This document shows positions 2,990 to 60,758 of a stretch of DNA of 64,000 bases, in pieces. Source of the DNA: a virus; IMG/VR virus record IMGVR_UViG_3300017824_001452. One strand, given 5' to 3'. Position numbers and translations under genes: made by a program. Within the stretch, counting starts at the first letter, position 1; every line of letters starts with the position of its first letter. Under the pieces are notes generated by a model that was given only the letters and a program-made list of their open reading frames with translations, did no database searches and was not told the origin of the DNA.

Positions 2990-3378
2990 ATACAGTAGAA
3001 GTACATTTACAATTTTATGAACTAGATGGTCGATGGAAAGGACATGACATATTCAAGTGGTGTTGTGTCACTAAAACTCCTCCCAGATATGAACGTTTTC
3101 ATCCTAGACCTTTAGCACATACTGATTTGTCTTCTATTATAAATTTTAATAAAGTACGAGATTGGTGTTGGGATACATGGGGACCTAGTTGTGATATGAA
3201 AGATTACGACAGAGTACATGAATTATCAAACTTTATGAGCCTAGCACAATACAACGACAGTACATACGATACACTAAATGAAAACTGGTGTTGGTCTAAT
3301 GAAGAAGATCATAAGCAACGTAGAATATATCTAGCAGGTGACGAAGAACGTGTGTGGCTAGAAACGAGGTGGCAATGA
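2986..3378 (+). CDS. hypothetical protein
   Basis: 130-aa Trp-rich ORF, 4-nt overlaps with both neighbours. Confidence 0.7.
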   Translation: MNTVEVHLQFYELDGRWKGHDIFKWCCVTKTPPRYERFHPRPLAHTDLSSIINFNKVRDWCWDTWGPSCDMKDYDRVHELSNFMSLAQYNDSTYDTLNENWCWSNEEDHKQRRIYLAGDEERVWLETRWQ

Positions 3379-4181
3379 GTCAGTGGCACGGCGGAAAAGG
3401 ATCCGCACCTAGAAAGGGTGAAAATCAAAAAGCCTATGCCGCTAACTATGATCGTATCTTCGGTAAAAAAGATATCATTAATGATCAATTATCACATGAA
3501 GGCAGGGGTTTTGATATCATAAATGATATCGTATCAGACGACCTTATTCAACGTATAAACGACAGAAAGGACGAACTCTACCCTGTACGTGCATCCACAC
3601 ATAAGAAGCAGTATGCAGAAGCAGAGGCATGTAAGAAACTATTTGGCATTGCTGTATGGTGGAGTCAACTCACGGATGATTGGGACGAAGTACAAGAGAT
3701 ACATGAACTCATCTATCCTGAAATCAAAAAGCATTTAACTGATGCAACATTTTATGCAAGTGATATCGTAACAATCAATGGTCCAAGCAGATGGGTAGGA
3801 CCTCATATTGATACACCGCACAGATTTAAAAAATATAATAAAAGAGAAAACAATGATGTCTGTGGTATACAAGTTATTATTCCACTTGATGACTTAGACA
3901 AAGACACAGGAGCAACTGGACTTATTCCTTATAGTCATCAACAAGATTGGGATATACAAGATTGCTATGAAGGCGTGCATGATGAATACTTTTTAGAGAA
4001 TGCAGAACAATATGATATGCCAAAAGGTAGTATCTTGTTTTACAATACTCGTTTAATGCATTCTACTATGCCATTACATTTACCCAAAAAACGTTCCATT
4101 TTGTTGATTAATTACCTCAGAAATGATATAATAAAAGAAATAAAAGACGAAGATAACGTATGGAGTTCTAATGGCAAATGA
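3375..4181 (+). CDS. 2OG-Fe(II) dioxygenase (PhyH-like) with N-terminal GGKGS peptide
   Basis: HxD (PHID), IPLDD...GAT..IPYSH, KGSILFYNTRLMHS...R; ATGA overlap supports start at 3375. Confidence 0.8.
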   Translation: MSQWHGGKGSAPRKGENQKAYAANYDRIFGKKDIINDQLSHEGRGFDIINDIVSDDLIQRINDRKDELYPVRASTHKKQYAEAEACKKLFGIAVWWSQLTDDWDEVQEIHELIYPEIKKHLTDATFYASDIVTINGPSRWVGPHIDTPHRFKKYNKRENNDVCGIQVIIPLDDLDKDTGATGLIPYSHQQDWDIQDCYEGVHDEYFLENAEQYDMPKGSILFYNTRLMHSTMPLHLPKKRSILLINYLRNDIIKEIKDEDNVWSSNGK

Positions 4182-4713
4182 CGTAATGATAGATATGGAA
4201 ACTCTAAGTACAGATCCTGATTGTGTTATTTTAACAATCGGTGCTGTTCGTTTTGATCCTATGGGTACTGGAGTCGTAGAAAAACTAGAACTACGTCCTG
4301 AGATAGATTCGCAAACAGAAGAATTAAATAGACATATAAACCCTGATACATTAAGGTGGTGGGGAGAACAAAGTGAGGATGCAATTGATGAAGCAATGGG
4401 TGACAGAGATAGGATTCCGTTTAAAGATGCAATGGATCAGTTATACAAGTTCTGCTGGAATCGCAGAGCAGTTTGGTCTAATGGCGCTGGTTTTGATATT
4501 GTTGTTGCAGAGAATGCCTTTAGGCAATTAGAAATGCCGATACCCTGGCCTTTCTACACTATTAGAGACACAAGAACAATATATGATCTTTGCAACGTAT
4601 CTCTTAAAGATGGTCAAGCAGTAACGTCTCACAAGGCTGTAGAAGACGCAGAACACCAAGCAATCGTTGTGCAACGTGCATATCAGAAACTTAAACAAGC
4701 AGGACTTAAATGA
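4171..4713 (+). CDS. DEDDh 3'-5' exonuclease
   Basis: DMETL (ExoI), NGAGFD (ExoII), HKAVEDA (ExoIII). Confidence 0.85.
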   Translation: MANDVMIDMETLSTDPDCVILTIGAVRFDPMGTGVVEKLELRPEIDSQTEELNRHINPDTLRWWGEQSEDAIDEAMGDRDRIPFKDAMDQLYKFCWNRRAVWSNGAGFDIVVAENAFRQLEMPIPWPFYTIRDTRTIYDLCNVSLKDGQAVTSHKAVEDAEHQAIVVQRAYQKLKQAGLK

Positions 4714-5291
4714 GTATACAGTCAGATATTGATATTGACTTTGGAGATAGAGAAAAACTACTCAAGTTGATTAAACATGTACCTGCGGCAATGCGTGATG
4801 TAGAGCCAATAAAGAAACATCCTACTGGTGTATACATAACAGATGTACCCTATGACCCTGTAAATGATATGTGTTCTTTAGATTATAAAGAAGCAGATCA
4901 AAGAGGATACTTTAAGTTAGACCTGTTAAATGTTAACATCTATAAAGCAGTAAAAGATGAATTACATTTAATTAGTCTTATGACTGAGCCTAATTGGGAA
5001 CGATTAAAAGAAAGAAATTTTGTATCTGTGTTGTTGCATCTAAACAAACAATATGATGTTATGCAACAAATGCCAGAGCCTATTAATAGTATTCCAAGAT
5101 TAGCAATGTTCTTGGCTATTATTCGTCCAGCAAAAAGAAATCTTATTGGGAAGACATGGAAAGAGATAAGTAAAACTGTGTGGATTGACAACAATACAGG
5201 ATACACGTTTAAAAAGTCACATGCAGTGGCATATGCACAATTAGTTGTAGTGCATATGAATTTATTAGAGGAGCAAGATGAGTCAATATGA
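4710..5291 (+). CDS. dnaE: DNA polymerase III alpha-like, catalytic C-terminal half of a split minimal enzyme
   Basis: SDIDIDF, KHPTGV, FKLDLL, LAIIRP and YTFKKSHAVAYA match DnaE motifs PDFDVDF, KHAGGV, KFDFLG, ALFRPG and YGFNKSH..AY. Confidence 0.85.
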   Translation: MSIQSDIDIDFGDREKLLKLIKHVPAAMRDVEPIKKHPTGVYITDVPYDPVNDMCSLDYKEADQRGYFKLDLLNVNIYKAVKDELHLISLMTEPNWERLKERNFVSVLLHLNKQYDVMQQMPEPINSIPRLAMFLAIIRPAKRNLIGKTWKEISKTVWIDNNTGYTFKKSHAVAYAQLVVVHMNLLEEQDESI

Positions 5292-5550
5292 CGATAGAGT
5301 AGAAAGACAGAGACAAATGTTAGCGGCCGAAGAGTGGTCAAGAGGCGTAAAAGCAATACATGCACATTCATTTACTACTATGCATTACGAAACAAACCCA
5401 GATAGAACAGGTGATGATTTACGTGTATTAGATATAGAATATAATGACGGCACAGTAGAAAGAGAATACATAGTATCAGGTCGAAAAGAAATAATAGGAA
5501 CAAAACTTAAAGGTGAAATGTTATTGTTTGAGTATCAGAGGCACATCTAA
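5278..5550 (+). CDS. hypothetical protein
   Basis: 90-aa ORF with GAGGAG RBS, coupled to neighbours. Confidence 0.7.
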   Translation: MSQYDDRVERQRQMLAAEEWSRGVKAIHAHSFTTMHYETNPDRTGDDLRVLDIEYNDGTVEREYIVSGRKEIIGTKLKGEMLLFEYQRHI

Positions 5551-6104
5551 TGGAAGAATTGACACTAAACTTAATACCAGAAAACGATCCTAAATTAAAG
5601 GAACCTTGTGAGCCTTGGGACTTTAAACTCGACGGTGATCCAACTGAACTAATTAAAGCAATGACTAAAGTGATGTTTAATCCTAATCATCCTGGCATTG
5701 GTTTAGCCGCACCACAATGTGGCGTAATGAAAAATATATTAATCATGGGCACAGATGAAAAGTTAATGGCTTTTATTAATCCTCAAGTAGATGAACTTAG
5801 AGGAGAAAAAGAATTATTTTTAGAAGGGTGCTTAAGTTATCCTGATCTATGGTTGCATGTTCCAAGACAACCTGAATGCGTAGTCACCTATCAACAAATC
5901 GATGGTGAAGTCGTTAAAGAAAAACATCTTACTGGTATTCAAGCACGTGTATTTTTACATGAATATGATCACCTATTAGGTATCACGTTTGAAGAACGTG
6001 TACAAAGTAAACTTAGTTTAGAATTGGCTAGAAAACGCAGAGCAAAAAAGAAACGCCAAAGTGCTAAACTGGCTAGAAGACTTAAATTCCCTTCTGTTTC
6101 TTAG
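5550..6104 (+). CDS. def: peptide deformylase
   Basis: GIGLAAPQ, EGCLS, HEYDHLLG motifs. Confidence 0.95.
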   Translation: MEELTLNLIPENDPKLKEPCEPWDFKLDGDPTELIKAMTKVMFNPNHPGIGLAAPQCGVMKNILIMGTDEKLMAFINPQVDELRGEKELFLEGCLSYPDLWLHVPRQPECVVTYQQIDGEVVKEKHLTGIQARVFLHEYDHLLGITFEERVQSKLSLELARKRRAKKKRQSAKLARRLKFPSVS

Positions 6105-6493
6105 TAAGGTCGTTTTACTAAAGTAATCGATTTTCTTTTAACTCTTTTCTTTTGGAAGTCAGTCATTGACACAATCGGTCCATGCAACAATGTTAATGAC
6201 TTATTATTGAATGTTCTTAAGAAAGGTTTAAACATTGCCCACTCTTGCTTAAGAAATAAATGAATTGGTATTTGACGATTTGATTCCCACCACCAAACAT
6301 CTCCTAATTCTAAAAACTTTAGTCTTTTTTCAGGATCAACTATTGCACCATAGTCATAGATAGTTGTAACAAGATCATCACGGTTTTGAACAATGCCCAC
6401 AAAGTCTTGTCCGGCATATTGTAACACCGAAATAAACGGGTGAGTCTCTGTCAATTTGACAAAAAAGTCGATGGGTTTCTTTGAATCTGTCAT
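6101..6493 (-). CDS. hypothetical protein
   Basis: 130-aa ORF; TAAATA late-promoter motif 10 nt upstream on the minus strand (6504-6509). Confidence 0.75.
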   Translation of the reverse strand: MTDSKKPIDFFVKLTETHPFISVLQYAGQDFVGIVQNRDDLVTTIYDYGAIVDPEKRLKFLELGDVWWWESNRQIPIHLFLKQEWAMFKPFLRTFNNKSLTLLHGPIVSMTDFQKKRVKRKSITLVKRPY

Positions 6494-7436: not shown

Positions 7437-8411
7437 ATGTTTGATATACTTACGATTGTCCCAGGCAAAAAGAAGCAGACGCAGAGTGGATGGACTTCAT
7501 TCAATGCGCCTTGTTGCCATCACAATGGACATAACCCTGACAAAAGAATGCGAGGGGGAATTAAAGCAGACGGTGATGATTGGAACTATCATTGTTTTAA
7601 TTGTGGCTTTAAGTGCGGTTTCAAACTAGGCAGAGCAATTAGTAAACGCACACGTAACTTTTTATCATGGTGTAATATGCCAGACCAAGATATTAATAAA
7701 TGGTCGTTGCATTCTATTCAACACAAAGATTTGATAGATTCTATCCTACACAAAAAGAAACAACAGAAGTTACCTACGTTTAAAGAAAAGCCAATGCCAG
7801 AAGGTGAGTTGATTTATACTGCTAATAAAGATCATCAAGTGTACATTGACTACTTGAACAAAAGAGGATTACAACACAACGACTATCCTTTTATGGTTAA
7901 TCCCAATGCAGAGGGAAGACAATCGCAGGGTATAATTATCCCTTACACATATGAAAACAAAGTTGTAGGTAGTACAATAAGATTTATGGACGATAGAAAT
8001 CCTAAGTTCATAAATGATCAACAACAAGGATATGTATTTGGTACTGATTTACAAAAAGATAGTTGGGAAGTCGTATTAGTTTTTGAAGGTATTTTTGATG
8101 CTATCTCAATGAACGGTTTAGCACTGACACATGACACAATTAATGACAATCAAGTTGCTGTCATTAACAAATTGGGTAAACGTGTTATTGTTGTTCCTGA
8201 TCAGGATAAAACAGGTTTAAGTATATGTGAAAGAGCATTAGAACTAGGTTTTGATGTGTCTTTACCTAACTGGTCAGAAGATATTAAAGATGCAAATGAT
8301 GCTGTAATTAAATATGGTCGTCTGAATACTCTACTAAGTATATTAGACTCCGCAACAAACAGCAAAATTAAAGTAGAAGTTATGAGGAATAAAATTGCTA
8401 AAAGAATTTAA
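7437..8411 (+). CDS. DNA primase (gp61/DnaG-like)
   Basis: Zn-binding CCHH...HCFNC; TOPRIM EGIFDA, PDQD..G, KDAND. Confidence 0.85.
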   Translation: MFDILTIVPGKKKQTQSGWTSFNAPCCHHNGHNPDKRMRGGIKADGDDWNYHCFNCGFKCGFKLGRAISKRTRNFLSWCNMPDQDINKWSLHSIQHKDLIDSILHKKKQQKLPTFKEKPMPEGELIYTANKDHQVYIDYLNKRGLQHNDYPFMVNPNAEGRQSQGIIIPYTYENKVVGSTIRFMDDRNPKFINDQQQGYVFGTDLQKDSWEVVLVFEGIFDAISMNGLALTHDTINDNQVAVINKLGKRVIVVPDQDKTGLSICERALELGFDVSLPNWSEDIKDANDAVIKYGRLNTLLSILDSATNSKIKVEVMRNKIAKRI

Positions 8412-9810
8412 CGTAGAAGTACAAGAATTATTCTTGCGAATGATGATAACAAATGCAGAGTTGTTTGTTAGGGTCAATAATATCTTTAACGCAGAAAACT
8501 TTGATAGAAGATTAAGACCTGTCGCAGAGTTTATGAGAGAACATTCAGAGCAATATAAGGTATTGCCTGACTCTACGCAAATCAAAGCAACAACAGGAGA
8601 AACAATCGACACAGTTGATGAATTAGACGATGGTCATTACGAATGGTTTATGACTGAGTTTGAATCGTTTACTCGCAGACAAGAATTAGAAAGAGCAATC
8701 ATGTCATCAGCAGACTTGTTAGAGAAAGGTGATTATGATCCTGTTGAAAAGTTAATTAAAGATGCAGTACAAATATCATTACAAAGAGACTTAGGTATCG
8801 ATTACTTTGAAGATCCTAGGGCTCGTCTTATGCATCTTAAATCTAGCAACGGTCAAGTATCATGTGGTTGGCCCTGCTTAGATCAAAAACTCTATGGTGG
8901 TTTTAATAAAGGTGAACTGCAAATCTTTGCTGGGGGTTCGGGTTCAGGTAAATCATTGTTCATGCAAAATCTATCAGTCAATTGGGTAGAGCAAGGCTTA
9001 TCAGGCGTGTACATCACACTAGAATTGAGTGAAGAACTATCAGCAATGCGTATCGATTCTATGTTGACTGATACAAAGTCTAAGGAAGTATTTAAAGACT
9101 TAGACAATGTTGAAATGAAAGTTAAGATGAAACAAAAAGCCGCAGGTAACTTTAGAATTAAATATATGCCTGCTCAATCTACAGTAAATGATTTGAGAGC
9201 ATATGTCAAAGAATTACAAATACAAACAGGTATGAAACTAGACTTTATGTGCGTTGACTATTTGGATTTGTTAATGCCAGTAAGTGCTAAAGTAAGTCCT
9301 AGTGACTTGTTTGTTAAAGACAAATATGTATCAGAAGAATTACGTAACTTGGCGAAAGAGTTTGATTTAGTATTCGTAACTGCATCACAGTTAAACAGAA
9401 GTTCAGTTGATGAAATTGAATTTGATCACAGTCATATCTCAGGTGGTATATCAAAAATCAATACAGCAGACAATGTGTTTGGTATCTTTACATCACGTAG
9501 CATGAGAGAACGTGGTCAGTATCAAATTCAGTTAATGAAGACAAGATCAAGTTCAGGGGTAGGACAAAAAGTAGAATTAGCATTCGATATAGAAACATTG
9601 CGTATTACAGACCCAGGAACTAATGCACCAACGCATAACACATCACAACCATCTGCACAATCTATCATGGATAAGTTTAAAACAACATCACAAGTAGGGC
9701 AGACTAATGAAATAGTAGAAAATCAAGTAGAGCCCGAGCAAAAACGAGTAAATGGTGATGTACAAAGTACAAAATTAAAATCATTATTGAATACTTTGAA
9801 AGACAAATAA
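8395..9810 (+). CDS. replicative DNA helicase (gp41/DnaB family)
   Basis: GGSGSGKS, YITLEL, VDYLDL, TASQLNR, MKTR motifs. Confidence 0.92.
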   Translation: MLKEFNVEVQELFLRMMITNAELFVRVNNIFNAENFDRRLRPVAEFMREHSEQYKVLPDSTQIKATTGETIDTVDELDDGHYEWFMTEFESFTRRQELERAIMSSADLLEKGDYDPVEKLIKDAVQISLQRDLGIDYFEDPRARLMHLKSSNGQVSCGWPCLDQKLYGGFNKGELQIFAGGSGSGKSLFMQNLSVNWVEQGLSGVYITLELSEELSAMRIDSMLTDTKSKEVFKDLDNVEMKVKMKQKAAGNFRIKYMPAQSTVNDLRAYVKELQIQTGMKLDFMCVDYLDLLMPVSAKVSPSDLFVKDKYVSEELRNLAKEFDLVFVTASQLNRSSVDEIEFDHSHISGGISKINTADNVFGIFTSRSMRERGQYQIQLMKTRSSSGVGQKVELAFDIETLRITDPGTNAPTHNTSQPSAQSIMDKFKTTSQVGQTNEIVENQVEPEQKRVNGDVQSTKLKSLLNTLKDK

Positions 9811-11351: not shown

Positions 11352-12500
11352 ATGAACCTCAGTGAATCATTATCTAATACTTTACGTACATTAGAAAAAA
11401 TCAACTTAGTCGAAGCAAAGGGACACTTAGATCACCCAGAAGATTTAGTGTTCTTAGGCGATGTTGAGGGTGCTAGACAAGCAATTAGTGCAATAGAACA
11501 AACAATCGCACAACCGGGTACAATCACAATTAAGTGGGACGGCTATCCCGCTCTTATCTTTGGACGTAATAAAGAAGGTAGATTCTCTATTATGGACAAA
11601 CATATGTTCAATAAGAAAGACGGTACAGGAAGACAAGTGTTTTCTCCCCAAGAGTTTAGACAGTATGATAAGAATAGAGGTGTTGATCGAGGAGACTTGT
11701 ATCAGTTGATTGATGATATATGGCCTGGATTAGAAAAAGCAGATAGAGGATCATTAGGTTATTATTGGGGAGACTTATTGTTTGCAAAACCATTAGAAGA
11801 CCAAGACGGATACTACTCATTTAAAATGAATCCAAATGGTATTGCATACAAAGTAAAAGCAGATAGTGAAGTTGGTCACATGCTAAAAGGAAAAACAGCA
11901 GGAGTAGGTGTGCATACATTTATTCCAGTTAACGCACAAACTACAGATGAGTCATCATCACTAGACGGTACGATAGGTAACTTACATAACAATAGTGATG
12001 TAGCAATTGTACCTAGCAAGATGCCCATTACACCAAAGATTAAAATGCCCACGAAATTGAAATCACAAGCAGAAGCAGAAATTGCTCAACACGGTGATGC
12101 TGTTCGTATCTTAATGAATTCAGCGCCACAGGCACGTACTGCATTTAATTCTTTGTTTACTGTATTCATTAATAAAAAGATTGTTGCCAAAGACCTGTCA
12201 AATTTGTATAATGATTTTATTCAGTTTGTTGAGCAACGTCCAATGACTGACTCAATGCGTACTAAAATTACTAATCACTTCAATGCTCACAAGGACGGTG
12301 TTATGGGTGCATTTAAGATTTGGATTGCATTGTATAATCTAAAACAGAACATCGTAGATCAATTAGACAAAGCCGCAGAGGCTAGTCCTGTTAAAGGATA
12401 CTTAGATGATGGCAGTGAAACACACGAAGGTTTCGTTGCTAATGGACTCAAGTTTGTCAATAGAATGGGCTTTTCTGCTCAAAATCTCGCCGCAAAGTAA
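11352..12500 (+). CDS. ligase-like nucleotidyltransferase (DUF6267-like), putatively virion-packaged
   Basis: HLDHPED, KWDG (ligase motif I KxDG), GDLLF, HEGFV, LKFVNR; N-terminal pro-segment ending LVE. Confidence 0.6.
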   Translation: MNLSESLSNTLRTLEKINLVEAKGHLDHPEDLVFLGDVEGARQAISAIEQTIAQPGTITIKWDGYPALIFGRNKEGRFSIMDKHMFNKKDGTGRQVFSPQEFRQYDKNRGVDRGDLYQLIDDIWPGLEKADRGSLGYYWGDLLFAKPLEDQDGYYSFKMNPNGIAYKVKADSEVGHMLKGKTAGVGVHTFIPVNAQTTDESSSLDGTIGNLHNNSDVAIVPSKMPITPKIKMPTKLKSQAEAEIAQHGDAVRILMNSAPQARTAFNSLFTVFINKKIVAKDLSNLYNDFIQFVEQRPMTDSMRTKITNHFNAHKDGVMGAFKIWIALYNLKQNIVDQLDKAAEASPVKGYLDDGSETHEGFVANGLKFVNRMGFSAQNLAAK

Positions 12501-51791: not shown

Positions 51792-52298
51792 ATGATTAAC
51801 GATTATTACGGACGCCCTATATATACTGAACGAGATTTAGTAGATATCTACATGACAAATCCAAATCAGAAATTAAAAGGTGTTCTTACTAATAACAAAA
51901 TAGAAATTGATCCAAGCCTAGAAATAGAAAATGTTCCTGAGTTAATAGAACACACATTAGCACAAGTTTCTGTTGCAGATTTTGATGAAGAAATGCGAAG
52001 CAAATGGCATATGCCTACAAAATACAGAGAACTAGACATTGCTAAATGGTTACTAGAACAATGTAAACACGAAGAAGAAATACAACGTGTAGGAAAAGAA
52101 TTGTTATTGTATCAAAAACGCGGACAATTTCAACTATTGCAGTATATGAAATATCTTGTTGATTTAATGAGAGAACATAATATCGTATGGGGAGTAGGTA
52201 GAGGGTCTAGTGTATCAAGTTTTGTTTTATTTTTGATAGGAATTCACCGTATAAATAGTATATACTACGGTTTAGACGTTGAAGAATTTTTAAAATAG
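51792..52298 (+). CDS. dnaE: DNA polymerase III alpha-like, N-terminal palm half of a split minimal enzyme
   Basis: QRVGKEL....GVGRGSSVSSFVLFLIGIHRIN..YGLDVEEFLK aligns to DnaE [31 protein letters not shown]. Confidence 0.85.
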   Translation: MINDYYGRPIYTERDLVDIYMTNPNQKLKGVLTNNKIEIDPSLEIENVPELIEHTLAQVSVADFDEEMRSKWHMPTKYRELDIAKWLLEQCKHEEEIQRVGKELLLYQKRGQFQLLQYMKYLVDLMREHNIVWGVGRGSSVSSFVLFLIGIHRINSIYYGLDVEEFLK

Positions 52299-52999: not shown

Positions 53000-53377
53000 A
53001 TGGCAATAGGACTTAAATCTAATATCAATCGTATACATTGTAAATCATTGAGAGCAATCAGTGATAAAATTATTGTACATGGCATGGAGTTCGGTGAACA
53101 GAAACTTGCATCTGGTATCGTGCTAGTAGACGATGATAAAAAGTCTACAGGAATCAAGCCTAGATGGGCACAAGTATACTCTATCGGTCCACAGGCAAAT
53201 ACTGAACTTAAAGAAGGACAATATGTAATGGTAGCACATGGTCGTTGGACACGTGGTATTAACATTACAGACGAAGAAGGGGACAAGACAATTCGTTGTG
53301 TTGACCCAAAAGATTGCTTGTTAGTAAGTGATGAACCACAGACTAACATGGCATATGGAGATAAAGAAGGAGCATAG
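53000..53377 (+). CDS. groES: GroES-like co-chaperonin
   Basis: RAISDKIIV...E..LASGIVL...V.SIGP....LKEGQYV. Confidence 0.85.
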   Translation: MAIGLKSNINRIHCKSLRAISDKIIVHGMEFGEQKLASGIVLVDDDKKSTGIKPRWAQVYSIGPQANTELKEGQYVMVAHGRWTRGINITDEEGDKTIRCVDPKDCLLVSDEPQTNMAYGDKEGA

Positions 53378-53923: not shown

Positions 53924-54847
53924 ATGAAGAATCAGTTGTGGGTAGAAAAGTATCGTCCGTTATCTGTAGATGATTATGTGTTTACAGATCCAATTCAAAA
54001 AGAACAAGTTCAAAACTGGATAGCAGAAGATAGTTTCCCTCATTTATTGATGTCTGGTGACCCCGGTACAGGTAAAACTACACTGGCAAAAGTGTTGATT
54101 AACGAATTAGGTATCGAAGAATATGACGTATTGACTATTAATGCATCACGTGAAAATGGTATTGACATGTTGCGTGAAAAGATTAATGGCTTTGTGCAGA
54201 CTATGCCGTTCGGCAAGTTCAAGGTGGTGCTGTTAGACGAGGCAGATTATTTAACTCAGCCCTCGCAGGCAGCCTTAAGAAATGATATGGAAGCATACCA
54301 TGAGACTGTAAGATACATTCTCACTTGTAACTATGCCCATAAGATCATTCCTGCACTAAAGTCTCGTTGTCATCAATATCATATTGCTAAGCCTGATATG
54401 ACAGAGTTTACAGCAAGAGCGGCAACTGTGCTAGTTACAGAAAAAGTTGAGTTTGAATTAGATGTATTAGATACATATGTTCGTGCAACTTATCCTGACT
54501 TACGTAAGTGTCTCAATCAATTGCAAGTAAACAGCGGCTCTGGCGCTCTCAGGCCCCCTCAGAGTGAAGGCCAGAGTGAAGATGAACTCTTAGTCGAAGC
54601 AACAAACTTGTTTAAAAGCGGTAATTTAATCGAAGCAAGACAACAATTGATGCAATATATCGCATTGTATCCTACTAGAATCGAAGATACATATCGTTGG
54701 ATGTATGATAACTTAGACTTGTTTGGGGCAAGTAATGAAGAACGTGATGCAAATATCATTGTTATCAGAAATGGTCTAGCAAATCTGCCGTTAGTAGGTA
54801 TCCCTGAGATATCACTCGCCGCAACTTTAGTTGAGTTGACTTCTTAA
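53924..54847 (+). CDS. clamp loader large subunit (gp44/RFC-like AAA+)
   Basis: LWVEKYRP, GDPGTGKTT, NAS, DEADYL, SRC, PDLRK. Confidence 0.93.
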   Translation: MKNQLWVEKYRPLSVDDYVFTDPIQKEQVQNWIAEDSFPHLLMSGDPGTGKTTLAKVLINELGIEEYDVLTINASRENGIDMLREKINGFVQTMPFGKFKVVLLDEADYLTQPSQAALRNDMEAYHETVRYILTCNYAHKIIPALKSRCHQYHIAKPDMTEFTARAATVLVTEKVEFELDVLDTYVRATYPDLRKCLNQLQVNSGSGALRPPQSEGQSEDELLVEATNLFKSGNLIEARQQLMQYIALYPTRIEDTYRWMYDNLDLFGASNEERDANIIVIRNGLANLPLVGIPEISLAATLVELTS

Positions 54848-57613: not shown

Positions 57614-58450
57614 ATGGACCATTATCAAACATTAGGTGTATCACCTCAAGCCGATCAAAAGGAAATTAAAAGAGCCTATCGAAAACTTGCAGGTAAACAT
57701 CACCCTGATAAAGGCGGAGATGCTGAAAAATTTAAAGAATTACAAAAAGCATATGATACTCTAAGTGACCCACAGAAACGAGCAGAGTATGATAATCCTA
57801 ATCCATTCACACAATTTCAGCAAGGAGGCAATCCGTTTGGTGCAGATAGTCCGTTTGGTGATATCTTTGGTGATATTTTTGGTCAACGTCCTAGAGGAAC
57901 TAGGCGTCCGCAACCTCAACCAATGTATAGAACACAGTTAAATGTTACTTTACGTCAATCATACACAGGTGATATACAAACACTAGAATTAAATACTCCA
58001 CAAGGTAAAAAAGTCGTGCAAGTTACTGTGCCACAAGGTGTACAGACCGGGCAACAGACACGTTATGATAATGTAGTTCAAAACGGAACATCTTTAATTA
58101 TTGATTTTCATGTAATGCAAGATTCATGGTTTGAAAGACACGGAAACAATTTGTTATGTACACATAACATTTCAGTATTAGATTTAATTGTGGGAACACA
58201 TTTTAATTTTACTACGATATCTGGAAAGGTCTTAAAAGTTACAGTAAAACCCAACACACAACCAGGTACACAAATTAAATTAGCAGGACATGGAATGCCA
58301 ATTGCTGATCGAAGAGGTCCTAATTACACTTCTGGAAACAACGGTGACCAAATTATATTGCTTAATGGTATTATACCAGATACAATAGAGCAAGGTGTCA
58401 TAGACTCAATTAAAAAATATAAAGATATCCAAGACTTAAAGCAAAACTAA
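57614..58450 (+). CDS. dnaJ: DnaJ-class co-chaperone (type II, no zinc finger; CbpA-like)
   Basis: J-domain with HPD, G/F region with DIF repeats, C-terminal domain. Confidence 0.92.
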
Positions 58451-58475: not shown

Positions 58476-60758
58476 TTGAACACATCACCAGAAATTGAAA
58501 ATATTATCTCTAGGGCAATCGAAACTGCAAAGTCCTATAATCATCAGTATGTTACTATTGAGCATTTGCTTCACGCATTAGTAACACATCAACCGTTTAA
58601 AAAAGTATTAAATCAATTTAATGTTGATACTGATTTAATGATTGGTGAAATAGAAGCATACTTGAATGGATTACATGCTATCGAATCTAAAGACCCTGAG
58701 TGTGTTCCTAAGAAAACTAATTCACTAGAACGTGTAATGAATAGAGGTGTTACACAAGTTCTATTTACAGGTCGTAGACAAGTCACTACTATGGATCTGT
58801 ATCTATCGATTGCAACTGAAGGAAACACCCATGCACATTATTTCTTATTAAAGTATGGTGTAAACAAAACTCAGTTTATTGAATTTTGGCAAAAGAATTA
58901 TAGACATCAGGATAGTCAAAACATCAGTCAAGACCAAGCAGATGATATTTTAGAAGAATACACAACTAATTTAACTAAATTGGCTAGAGACGATAAACTA
59001 GAACCTGTCATAGGACGTGTGTCTGAAATTGATGACATTATTAATGTTCTAGCAAAACGTTTTAAAGCAAACGTATTAATGGTAGGTGATCCGGGTGTAG
59101 GTAAAACAGCAATTGCAGAAGGTATTGCACAAGCAGTTGTTAACAAAGAAGTACCCGAGTTCTTAGACGGACATGAAGTCTATTCATTAGAGATTGGTAA
59201 CTTACTTGCTGGATCAAAATATCGCGGTGAGTTTGAAGAAAAAGTTAAAGAAGTCATTATGGCTTTAGAAGTTAAAAAGAATTGTATCTTATTCATTGAC
59301 GAAGCCCACACTATGGGAGGCGCTGGATCAACATCGAATGGCTCAGTTGATTTTGCAAACATGATTAAGCCTGCTATTACTAAAGGAACTCTCAAAGTAA
59401 TCGCATCTACTACATGGGAAGAATACTATGAATCGTTTGAAAAAGACAGAGCCCTCATGCGTAGATTCTATCGTGTTTCAATTGATGAACCTTCACATGA
59501 TACTACAATTAGAATTTTACGTGGTTTATCCGATAGATTAAATGACTTCCACGATGTCAACATTACAGAAGATGCAATCGAAGCCGCAGTTGAAATGGCT
59601 GACAGATACATACACGAAAGAAAGAATCCAGATAAGTCTATTGACTTACTTGATGCCGCTTGTGCAAAGCAACGTGTAGCAGAAAACAAAGGTGTTGATA
59701 TCACTAAGACATTGATTTTTGATCAAGTAGAGAAGTTCACAGGCGTTCCTGCTGACAAACTTAAAGGTGATAATGTAGATCGTATTACTAACTTAGACGT
59801 TAATGTTAAAAGTAAGTTGTATGGTCAAGATGATGTAGTTGATAATGTAATCGAAAGAGTTTATGTATCGTTTGCAGGAATCGGCAACGAAACTAAACCT
59901 ATCGCAAGTTTCTTATTTTTAGGACCAACAGGCACGGGAAAAACAGAATTGGCTAAACTGCTGTCTAGTAACTTAGATATGCCACTGCTCAAATACGATA
60001 TGTCCGAGTATTCTGAGAAACACAGTGTAAGCAGTTTGATAGGACCTCCCCCGGGTTATGTAGGTTTTAGTGATTCACAAGTACAAGGCGGACGTTTGAT
60101 ATCAGACTTAAGTAAACAACCTCATTCAATCATGTTGTTTGATGAAGTTGAGAAAGCACACCCTGATATCTTTAATATTTTCTTACAGATGTTAGACGAA
60201 GGTACGATCACTGGGTCTAATGGTAAGCAAGTATCATGTAAGAACTGTTTAATCATTCTCACATCTAACTTAGGTAGTGCAGACGGAGAACGTTCAAACA
60301 TCGGATTCGGTGATACGGACAAAGTAGGCGAAGATGAAAAAGCAATGAAAAACTTCTTTAAGCCAGAGTTTAGAAATAGACTTGACATGGTTTGTAAGTT
60401 TGGTAAACTTGATAAACTATCTATTAAAAAGATTGTTGTTAAATTTGTTGCTGACCTACAAAAAGCACTGCTTGATAAACATAATATCACTCTTAACTTT
60501 AGTGAAGATGCAGTTGATTACTTAGCAGACGTAGGTTATGATAGCAAGTTGGGAGCAAGACCATTAGCAAGAAAAATTGATGAACTTGTAAGAGTCCCAT
60601 TGAGTAAAAAGATTTTATTTGAGAAAATCAAAGATGCTAATGTCATGTGTGTTATTGATCCAGACACTGGAGAGATTGATTTTGCTTCAACGAAAAAACA
60701 GGTTGCTCAAGTAGGTGACGATGGTATCATTGAAGTAGAAGATTCAGACAACATATAA
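58476..60758 (+). CDS. clpA: ClpA-like Hsp100 unfoldase
   Basis: N-domain, two AAA+ modules (GDPGVGKT, GPTGTGKT), short linker, IGF loop; late promoter 58448-58453. Confidence 0.9.
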   Translation: MNTSPEIENIISRAIETAKSYNHQYVTIEHLLHALVTHQPFKKVLNQFNVDTDLMIGEIEAYLNGLHAIESKDPECVPKKTNSLERVMNRGVTQVLFTGRRQVTTMDLYLSIATEGNTHAHYFLLKYGVNKTQFIEFWQKNYRHQDSQNISQDQADDILEEYTTNLTKLARDDKLEPVIGRVSEIDDIINVLAKRFKANVLMVGDPGVGKTAIAEGIAQAVVNKEVPEFLDGHEVYSLEIGNLLAGSKYRGEFEEKVKEVIMALEVKKNCILFIDEAHTMGGAGSTSNGSVDFANMIKPAITKGTLKVIASTTWEEYYESFEKDRALMRRFYRVSIDEPSHDTTIRILRGLSDRLNDFHDVNITEDAIEAAVEMADRYIHERKNPDKSIDLLDAACAKQRVAENKGVDITKTLIFDQVEKFTGVPADKLKGDNVDRITNLDVNVKSKLYGQDDVVDNVIERVYVSFAGIGNETKPIASFLFLGPTGTGKTELAKLLSSNLDMPLLKYDMSEYSEKHSVSSLIGPPPGYVGFSDSQVQGGRLISDLSKQPHSIMLFDEVEKAHPDIFNIFLQMLDEGTITGSNGKQVSCKNCLIILTSNLGSADGERSNIGFGDTDKVGEDEKAMKNFFKPEFRNRLDMVCKFGKLDKLSIKKIVVKFVADLQKALLDKHNITLNFSEDAVDYLADVGYDSKLGARPLARKIDELVRVPLSKKILFEKIKDANVMCVIDPDTGEIDFASTKKQVAQVGDDGIIEVEDSDNI

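Follow-up and report, generated by a model that had tools for sequence, protein, structure and literature searches.

A putative split minimal DNA polymerase III alpha subunit and its neighbouring exonuclease in an uncultured marine jumbo phage

Our analysis of a 64,000-nucleotide (nt) stretch of viral DNA (IMG/VR record IMGVR_UViG_3300017824_001452; hereafter the window) indicates that the open reading frame (ORF) at 4710–5291 on the plus strand is almost certainly the C-terminal half of a split, minimal DNA polymerase III (Pol III) alpha subunit of the kind carried by group 2.2 jumbo phages (Rak2/PA5oct/Atu_ph07-type). This 193-amino-acid (aa) protein, the metal- and template-binding part, is referred to below as the C-half. 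Its putative partner, the 168-aa nucleotide-binding N-half, is encoded 47 kb away at 51792–52298 (+). We favour the reading that the two proteins form a heterodimeric, distributive accessory DNA polymerase, and give this statement as a whole, identity included, a probability of roughly 0.6.

In the proposed mechanism, the N-half and C-half would come together as a single Pol-beta-type nucleotidyltransferase palm whose active site is composite. The N-half would bring the GRGS triphosphate-binding loop, and the C-half the two-metal carboxylates D6, D8 and D71 together with K69. R139-P140 of the C-half would lie against the templating nucleotide, while a helix-loop-helix carrying a Tyr and a His would stack on the incoming nucleotide. 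Such an enzyme would have an accessory role in phage replication or repair, e.g., in short gap-filling or primer extension, beside a 904-aa family B replicase. A DexA-like exonuclease gene directly upstream of the C-half gene appears to have been inserted into the operon in one marine lineage, where its product would be co-expressed with the polymerase rather than being a defining subunit of it.

Domains retained and lost in the C-half

The C-half has no Pfam match. It is covered almost entirely by phrog_11778 (6.4e-55 over residues 4–189), a family annotated as 'DNA polymerase', and makes weak contact with DnaE-type PHROGs at the KSH motif. When the family profile was compared with the PDB, it matched Pol III alpha chains only, with a best E-value of 1.2e-5 (2hnh). 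Three blocks of the C-half correspond to Escherichia coli DnaE in this comparison: residues 4–22 to 399–419, the strand with D401 and D403; residues 55–140 to 539–641, which contain K553, D555 and R639-P640; and residues 151–180 to 739–769, which span Y754 to H760. In the first gap between these blocks, 32 residues (23–54) stand in the place of 119 in E. coli (420–538), and in the second gap, which had escaped an earlier reading of the stretch made from its sequence alone (the sequence-only reading), 10 residues (141–150) stand in the place of 97 (642–738). About 87 residues are thus lost at each site.

Published limits in E. coli alpha are 1–280 for the PHP domain, 281–432 and 510–810 for the palm and fingers, 433–509 for the thumb, 811–928 for the fingertip and 929–1160 for the tail (PMC4703070). 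The first gap corresponds to loss of the thumb, since the published thumb limits fall within it, and the second is, as judged from the aligned blocks, loss of the index-finger body (~642–738). The C-half ends just past the KSH motif, at about E. coli residue 784, and PF17657 (DNA_pol3_finger) found no match in it.

Structure prediction points in the same direction. The AlphaFold2 model of the C-half has a predicted local distance difference test score (pLDDT) of 96.1, and VIA-align placed 186–190 of its 193 residues on E. coli 2hnh 397–784 (Z 8.4). The same model aligned with residues 458–841 of the Taq enzyme (3e0d) and 968–1299 of PolC (3f2b), both at Z 9.3. In a scan of 48,161 PDB chains, Z-scores of 6 or more were obtained for C-family polymerases only, and the next best score was 3.9; Foldseek alone gave a weaker result (E 7e-3). 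Between the strand coming after the DxD helix and the helix that precedes K69, the model contains two strands and a short loop only. An hhalign comparison of the family profile with E. coli 392–792 aligned the central block alone and thereby does not fix the residue at which the thumb was lost; judged by the order of secondary-structure elements, the turn of residues 29–34 is the likely site. Based on the predicted structure and the sequence blocks, we conclude that the C-half lacks a thumb.

All checkable features that the sequence-only reading had described in this protein are borne out by these data. It had placed the catalytic D6/D8 about 63 aa from D71, as against about 152 aa in E. coli DnaE, and the measured spacings are 63 residues (D8–D71) and 152 residues (D403–D555). 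It had located the deletion where the thumb normally sits, between DREKLLKLIKH and KHPTGV, which agrees with the profile gap and, by the order of secondary-structure elements, with the turn at 29–34 as its likely site; no thumb is retained in the predicted model. Its statement that the protein stops soon after FKKSHAVAY, so that the later domains are missing, is in line with the end at about E. coli residue 784 and the unmatched PF17657. The total length, put at about 360 aa versus about 1160 aa, amounts to 193 + 168 = 361 aa versus 1160 aa.

Conservation analysis showed that the C-half belongs to a large family. A word-indexed search retrieved at least 7984 database homologues, which are abundant in marine and freshwater metagenomes, and a HMMER search of 1.84 billion cluster representatives yielded 399 relatives. 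Among the best 150 of these 399, all but one are 71–233 aa long, and the complete ones have a length of ~190 aa. None of D6, D8, K69, D71, R139 and P140 varies among 72 cluster representatives with 30–51% identity to the window protein, and this includes the catalytic aspartates on whose conservation the sequence-only reading had made its interpretation depend. Identity to cultured members of the family (Phosso, Atu_ph07, PA5oct, PBECO4) is 37–48%. The median ratio of nonsynonymous to synonymous substitution rates (dN/dS) of the C-half is 0.06, indicating strong purifying selection. Together with the phrog_11778 match and the number of homologues, this places the family assignment well outside chance.

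The N-half and its relation to the C-half

The N-half was assigned by phrog_11127 (1.8e-40) and by PF07733 (3.7e-10, positions 15–94), its only Pfam match. In its AlphaFold2 model (pLDDT 83.9), residues 58–168 align with E. coli 271–393 (5fku; VIA-align Z 9.3), i.e., with the beginning of the palm, immediately following the PHP domain. The GRGS triphosphate loop corresponds to G136–S139 and is invariant in 28 sequences; G134, G136, R137, G138, S139 and S140 are all invariant. The remaining residues 1–57 (51792–51962) form an extension that is not a PHP domain, which, at 164 Pfam positions, is too long to fit there. The sequence-only reading was therefore right that the other half lacks PHP, since the N-half aligns from E. 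coli 271 onward and carries PF07733 only. The extension was predicted with moderate confidence to consist of a helix and a few strands, which remain unaligned to solved polymerase structures; it may substitute for a missing domain.

Because the N-half corresponds to E. coli 271–393 and the C-half to 397–784, the two halves abut at E. coli 393/397. This split site coincides with a boundary described in a preprint, where the rigid residues 271–393 give way to the mobile portion of the large palm subdomain (bioRxiv 10.64898/2026.06.29.735100). When the N-half was aligned with those of five cultured phages, a naturally fused form and E. coli, its stop was found at the same site in all relatives. 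The fused form, P0178 (375 aa; L105:1066–2193), joins the two halves at exactly the usual split point. It lies on one 2.4-kb metagenomic contig, where a convergent small ORF follows the fused gene, and it is one fused form among the best 150 of the 399 HMMER representatives. A word-index search for fused or longer forms found none, which is weak evidence. As read from its sequence, the natural fusion supports the view that the two halves are one enzyme.

Each of the five complete cultured relatives carries one N-half and one C-half. Moreover, the order of N-half, a small ORF and a GroES-like gene is the same in PA5oct and Phosso. In the window, an RFC/gp44-type clamp loader is encoded near the N-half, at 53924–54847 (+; phrog_168, 1.3e-71); downstream of the N-half, an AAA-ATPase gene is found further on in Phosso, and the corresponding stretch of PA5oct carries no clamp-loader annotation. 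The shared split site and the conserved synteny of both halves (for the C-half, see below) therefore indicate that the split is old and stable.

Active-site contacts, the exonuclease and alternative readings

In the E. coli ternary complex, the incoming dGTP and the template are contacted by R362–S364, D401, D403, K553, D555, R639-P640, Y754 and H760 (bioRxiv 10.64898/2026.06.29.735100). Most of these positions can be recognized in the phage proteins. The GS motif is kept, D401/D403 correspond to D6/D8, K553/D555 to K69/D71 and R639-P640 to R139-P140. The helix-loop-helix is kept as well, with Y165, F167, K169 and H171 at the positions of Y754, F756, K758 and H760. In contrast, the little-finger contacts to DNA are all lost. 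Thumb, closing index finger, the fingertip or clamp-binding region, OB tail and PHP domain are all missing from the minimal enzyme, which would therefore be expected to hold DNA weakly and to act distributively.

The phage apparently has a different main replicase. By a contig walk via proteins identical to those encoded at the end of the window, we arrived at a family B polymerase of 904 aa (PF03104 and PF00136) that includes an exonuclease domain; it is encoded ~27 kb past the window, at ~+91 kb in window coordinates, on contigs syntenic with it. The five complete cultured relatives show the same pattern: a family B polymerase is present in all five, and neither PHP nor DNA_pol3_finger in any of them. 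A tblastn search of the window and the walked contigs with E. coli DnaE recovered the KSH motif only and no further Pol III piece. Both searches had been suggested by the sequence-only reading, the first for a family B polymerase and the second for separately encoded thumb, OB or PHP pieces. Its view that the protein is not a conventional processive replicase fits the missing domains and the family B polymerase on the syntenic contigs.

Several observations weigh against an accessory DNA polymerase assembled from the two halves. The minimal enzyme has lost R709, K714 and K715 of the index finger, all of them within 4 Å of dGTP in the ternary complex of E. coli (bioRxiv 10.64898/2026.06.29.735100). 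The thumb is lost together with its DNA-groove loop and the proofreading wedge. At the position of Arg390, which contacts the triphosphate, the N-half carries a Glu (E165), and this Glu recurs without exception in the marine clade, in five cultured jumbo phages and in the fused form; replacement of Arg390 by Ala in the E. coli enzyme lowers catalytic efficiency 27-fold. As judged from the alignment, E165 is a family-wide charge reversal. With the thumb, R709/K714/K715 and Arg390 gone, templated DNA synthesis is inferred from homology. In addition, the consensus of the 72 cluster representatives shows no conserved clamp-binding motif at the C-terminus of the C-half, the family B polymerase sits on near-identical contigs and not on the window's own record, and our literature searches turned up no experimental study of the split minimal Pol III family.

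The sequence-only reading had also suggested that the polymerase works with a separate proofreader. The candidate is a 180-aa Rv2179c-like/DexA-like DEDDh exonuclease encoded at 4171–4713 (+; PF16473, 3.4e-34; phrog_255, 3.7e-44). As that reading had stated, this upstream gene overlaps the C-half gene by 4 nt: the ATGA at 4710–4713 (+) combines the TGA stop codon at 4711–4713 with the ATG that begins at 4710, and an AGGA Shine-Dalgarno-like site lies 5 nt 5′ of the overlap. In the marine clade, the exonuclease could be a dedicated proofreader that edits the primer end in trans, with the three proteins making up a small-scale 'Pol III core'. In line with this, the gene is found upstream of the C-half gene in all 83 loci in which both genes were detected with a C-half of at least 67% identity, and 62 of the 83 junctions have the same ATGA. 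The DEDDh residues D8, E10, D109, H154 and D159 do not vary among 19 relatives and dN/dS is 0.09, so that the enzyme looks active from its sequence; the polymerase itself has no nuclease domain.

However, the adjacency is a property of the marine clade only. The exonuclease gene is not next to the C-half gene in any of seven cultured relatives (Phosso, Atu_ph07, PA5oct, Vibrio phage 2.275.O, Slicko01, PBECO4 and SCTP-2). Among the five complete genomes with the minimal polymerase, PF16473 is absent from three and lies tens to more than 100 kb from either half in the other two. Moreover, members of the exonuclease family are found across 630 phage records of diverse types, most of them without the minimal polymerase (one T4-like vibriophage record names it 'exonuclease A'), and identity of the window protein to homologues from cultured phages does not exceed 38%. 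Even within the 83 close loci, 12 junctions have another overlap and nine contain ORF inserts of 98–936 nt. The ATGA overlap itself says little about a specific link because nearly every junction in the block overlaps. The sites on which the E. coli proofreader docks, PHP and thumb, are both absent from the minimal enzyme. A complex prediction for the N-half and C-half with the exonuclease as partner scored 0.01 (mark 0.32), which is evidence neither way. Taken together, we consider a dedicated proofreader unlikely. The exonuclease gene rather appears to have been inserted in this lineage only, its product being co-expressed with the C-half and possibly a functional partner of it.

A second alternative is that the two halves are not a templated polymerase at all but a nucleotidyltransferase that would, for example, add tails to DNA or RNA ends without a template, or make a nucleotide signal or a modified nucleotide. 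Little beyond a Pol-beta-type core is left once the thumb is gone and, with the closing index finger, R709, K714 and K715; the position of Arg390 is an invariant Glu, and the phage apparently already has a full replicase. On the other hand, the template-contacting residues R139-P140 and the base-stacking residues Y165 and H171 (Y754 and H760 in E. coli) are retained and conserved, the structural relatives of the C-half are replicative C-family polymerases only, and its gene lies within a conserved helicase-primase-DnaB block. We thus regard this alternative as improbable. A related version, in which a non-copying enzyme with another substrate or chemistry (end-tailing or a nucleotide signal) resides in a replication-linked operon, would draw on the same Arg390-to-Glu change and on the loss of index finger and thumb; the nuclease of the marine clade might then act on the same product. 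This version seems to us a long shot.

Finally, the very small size and the lack of most DnaE domains could point to a decaying remnant, or to a non-catalytic protein that binds or interferes with parts of the host replisome, but with catalytic residues invariant in 72 sequences, a dN/dS of 0.06, at least 7984 homologues of a uniform ~190 aa, and split site and synteny kept across distant phages, we consider this very improbable.

Genomic setting and comparison with known systems

The source of the window is an uncultured marine jumbo myophage. Among the genes of the window are those for a tail sheath, a ClpB-like chaperone and three replication proteins, namely a primase, the DnaB helicase and an RFC-type clamp loader. 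The window has a GC content of ~36%, and a near-identical gene is found on a 333-kb contig. The sole blastn match of the window to cultured phages is 165 nt in Atu_ph07.

The C-half gene is part of a replication-gene block. Downstream, a Toprim primase (7437–8411, +; PF13155, 3.2e-5) and a DnaB-type helicase (8395–9810, +; PF03796, 1.2e-19) follow. The order of C-half, primase and DnaB is kept in all cultured relatives examined, where the C-half has a helicase block on one side and primase-DnaB on the other. The same block of the window includes genes for a PhyH-like 2-oxoglutarate-Fe(II) oxygenase (3354–4181, +) and a peptide deformylase (5550–6104, +). The arrangement of oxygenase, exonuclease and deformylase is restricted to the marine clade, and oxygenase and deformylase are absent from the locus in the cultured relatives. 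Gene overlaps occur throughout the block (2986/2989, 3354/3378, 4171/4181, 5278/5291 and 5550/5550).

Two further ORFs near the C-half recur in cultured relatives. A convergent 130-aa ORF at 6101–6493 on the minus strand (phrog_11637, 2.1e-29) has counterparts in Phosso, Atu_ph07, PA5oct, Vibrio phage 2.275.O, Slicko01, PBECO4 and SCTP-2, where a minus-strand ORF of 108–132 aa abuts or overlaps the 3′ end of the C-half gene, as compared by position and size. This ORF is conserved context and a candidate partner of the polymerase. Upstream of the C-half, a 242-aa protein encoded at 2261–2989 (+; phrog_11058, 2.2e-56) carries a C2H2-like zinc-finger motif near its N-terminus. By position and size, an ORF of ~235 aa occupies the same place in cultured relatives and is adjacent to the C-half gene in PA5oct.

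A scan of the region for promoters and terminators showed no enrichment (24 sites versus 23.5 expected). One good sigma-70-like site at 4104–4132 (+), with TTGATT, a 17-nt spacer, TATAAT and an upstream TG, falls within the 3′-terminal part of the oxygenase gene, ~40 nt before the start of the exonuclease gene; alone, it is not evidence. Further downstream, a 382-aa protein encoded at 11352–12500 (+) matches DUF6267 (1.7e-36) and has a KxDG motif (KWDG) near residue 62. In sequence it resembles a nucleotidyltransferase of the ligase/capping type and is possibly the ATP-dependent ligase of the phage. The window also encodes a set of chaperones: a GroES-like co-chaperonin (53000–53377, +), a DnaJ-like protein (57614–58450, +), assigned via its counterpart on contig L086, and a 760-aa ClpB-type protein with a double AAA+ module (58476–60758, +).

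The closest known system is the phage-specific minimal Pol III alpha that Iyer et al. (2021; Viruses 13:63, PMC7824862) described from sequence in group 2.2 jumbo phages. According to the passages of that paper cited here, the enzyme consists of two proteins from distant loci, an N-terminal one that binds NTP (nucleoside triphosphate) and a C-terminal one that binds Mg and template, with no other Pol III domains. The enzyme accompanies a family B polymerase, with which it may cooperate in the synthesis of one strand or in repair, and it was proposed to model what the catalytic module of an ancestral Pol III looked like. Coupling to an exonuclease is not mentioned in those passages. As far as they describe it, the group 2.2 enzyme shares with that of the window the two stand-alone proteins at distant loci and the context of DnaB and an RFC-type clamp loader; the family B polymerase has its counterpart on the contigs syntenic with the window. 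The synteny of the window matches that of Atu_ph07, PA5oct, PBECO4, SCTP-2 and Phosso. In contrast to these cultured members, the window belongs to an uncultured marine lineage, in which the PhyH-like oxygenase, the DEDDh exonuclease and the deformylase are inserted around the C-half. Some GenBank records annotate the two genes as DnaE-like.

The family itself is thus already known from sequence, and the window adds a further, marine member. No smaller relative of the bacterial replicase is known than the split minimal Pol III. Our analysis contributes a map of which E. coli contacts to deoxynucleoside triphosphate, template and DNA survive, a natural fused form, the Arg390-to-Glu change, and the view that the exonuclease coupling is a lineage-specific insertion and, as far as can be judged, not part of the enzyme. 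The enzyme remains an attractive target for biochemistry.

Compared with E. coli alpha (2HNH, 5FKW) and PolC (3F2B), the minimal enzyme shares the Pol-beta-type palm, the GS loop, the Asp triad with K553, R639-P640 and Y754/H760, all in the same order of elements. It differs from E. coli alpha in having 361 aa in two chains instead of 1160 in one, and in lacking PHP, the thumb, the index-finger body and everything after about residue 784, i.e., the fingertip, the clamp-binding motif, the OB domain and the tau-binding tail.

The likeness to the E. coli Pol III core lies in a C-family polymerase without a DEDD nuclease of its own and a separate DEDDh gene alongside. In E. coli, the proofreading subunit epsilon docks on PHP and contacts the thumb (PMC4703070; bioRxiv 10.64898/2026.06.29.735100), whereas both of these sites are missing from the minimal enzyme. 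The phage nuclease, in turn, belongs to the Rv2179c/DexA-like family and not to DnaQ, and it is absent from most genomes with the minimal polymerase. With the Rv2179c/T4 DexA-like phage exonucleases (PF16473, phrog_255), the 180-aa window protein shares the form of a stand-alone DEDDh nuclease. Annotations of the phage homologues vary and include exonuclease, exonuclease A, exodeoxyribonuclease VIII and 3′-5′ exoribonuclease. What sets the window gene apart from these other phage exonucleases is its overlap with a polymerase gene.

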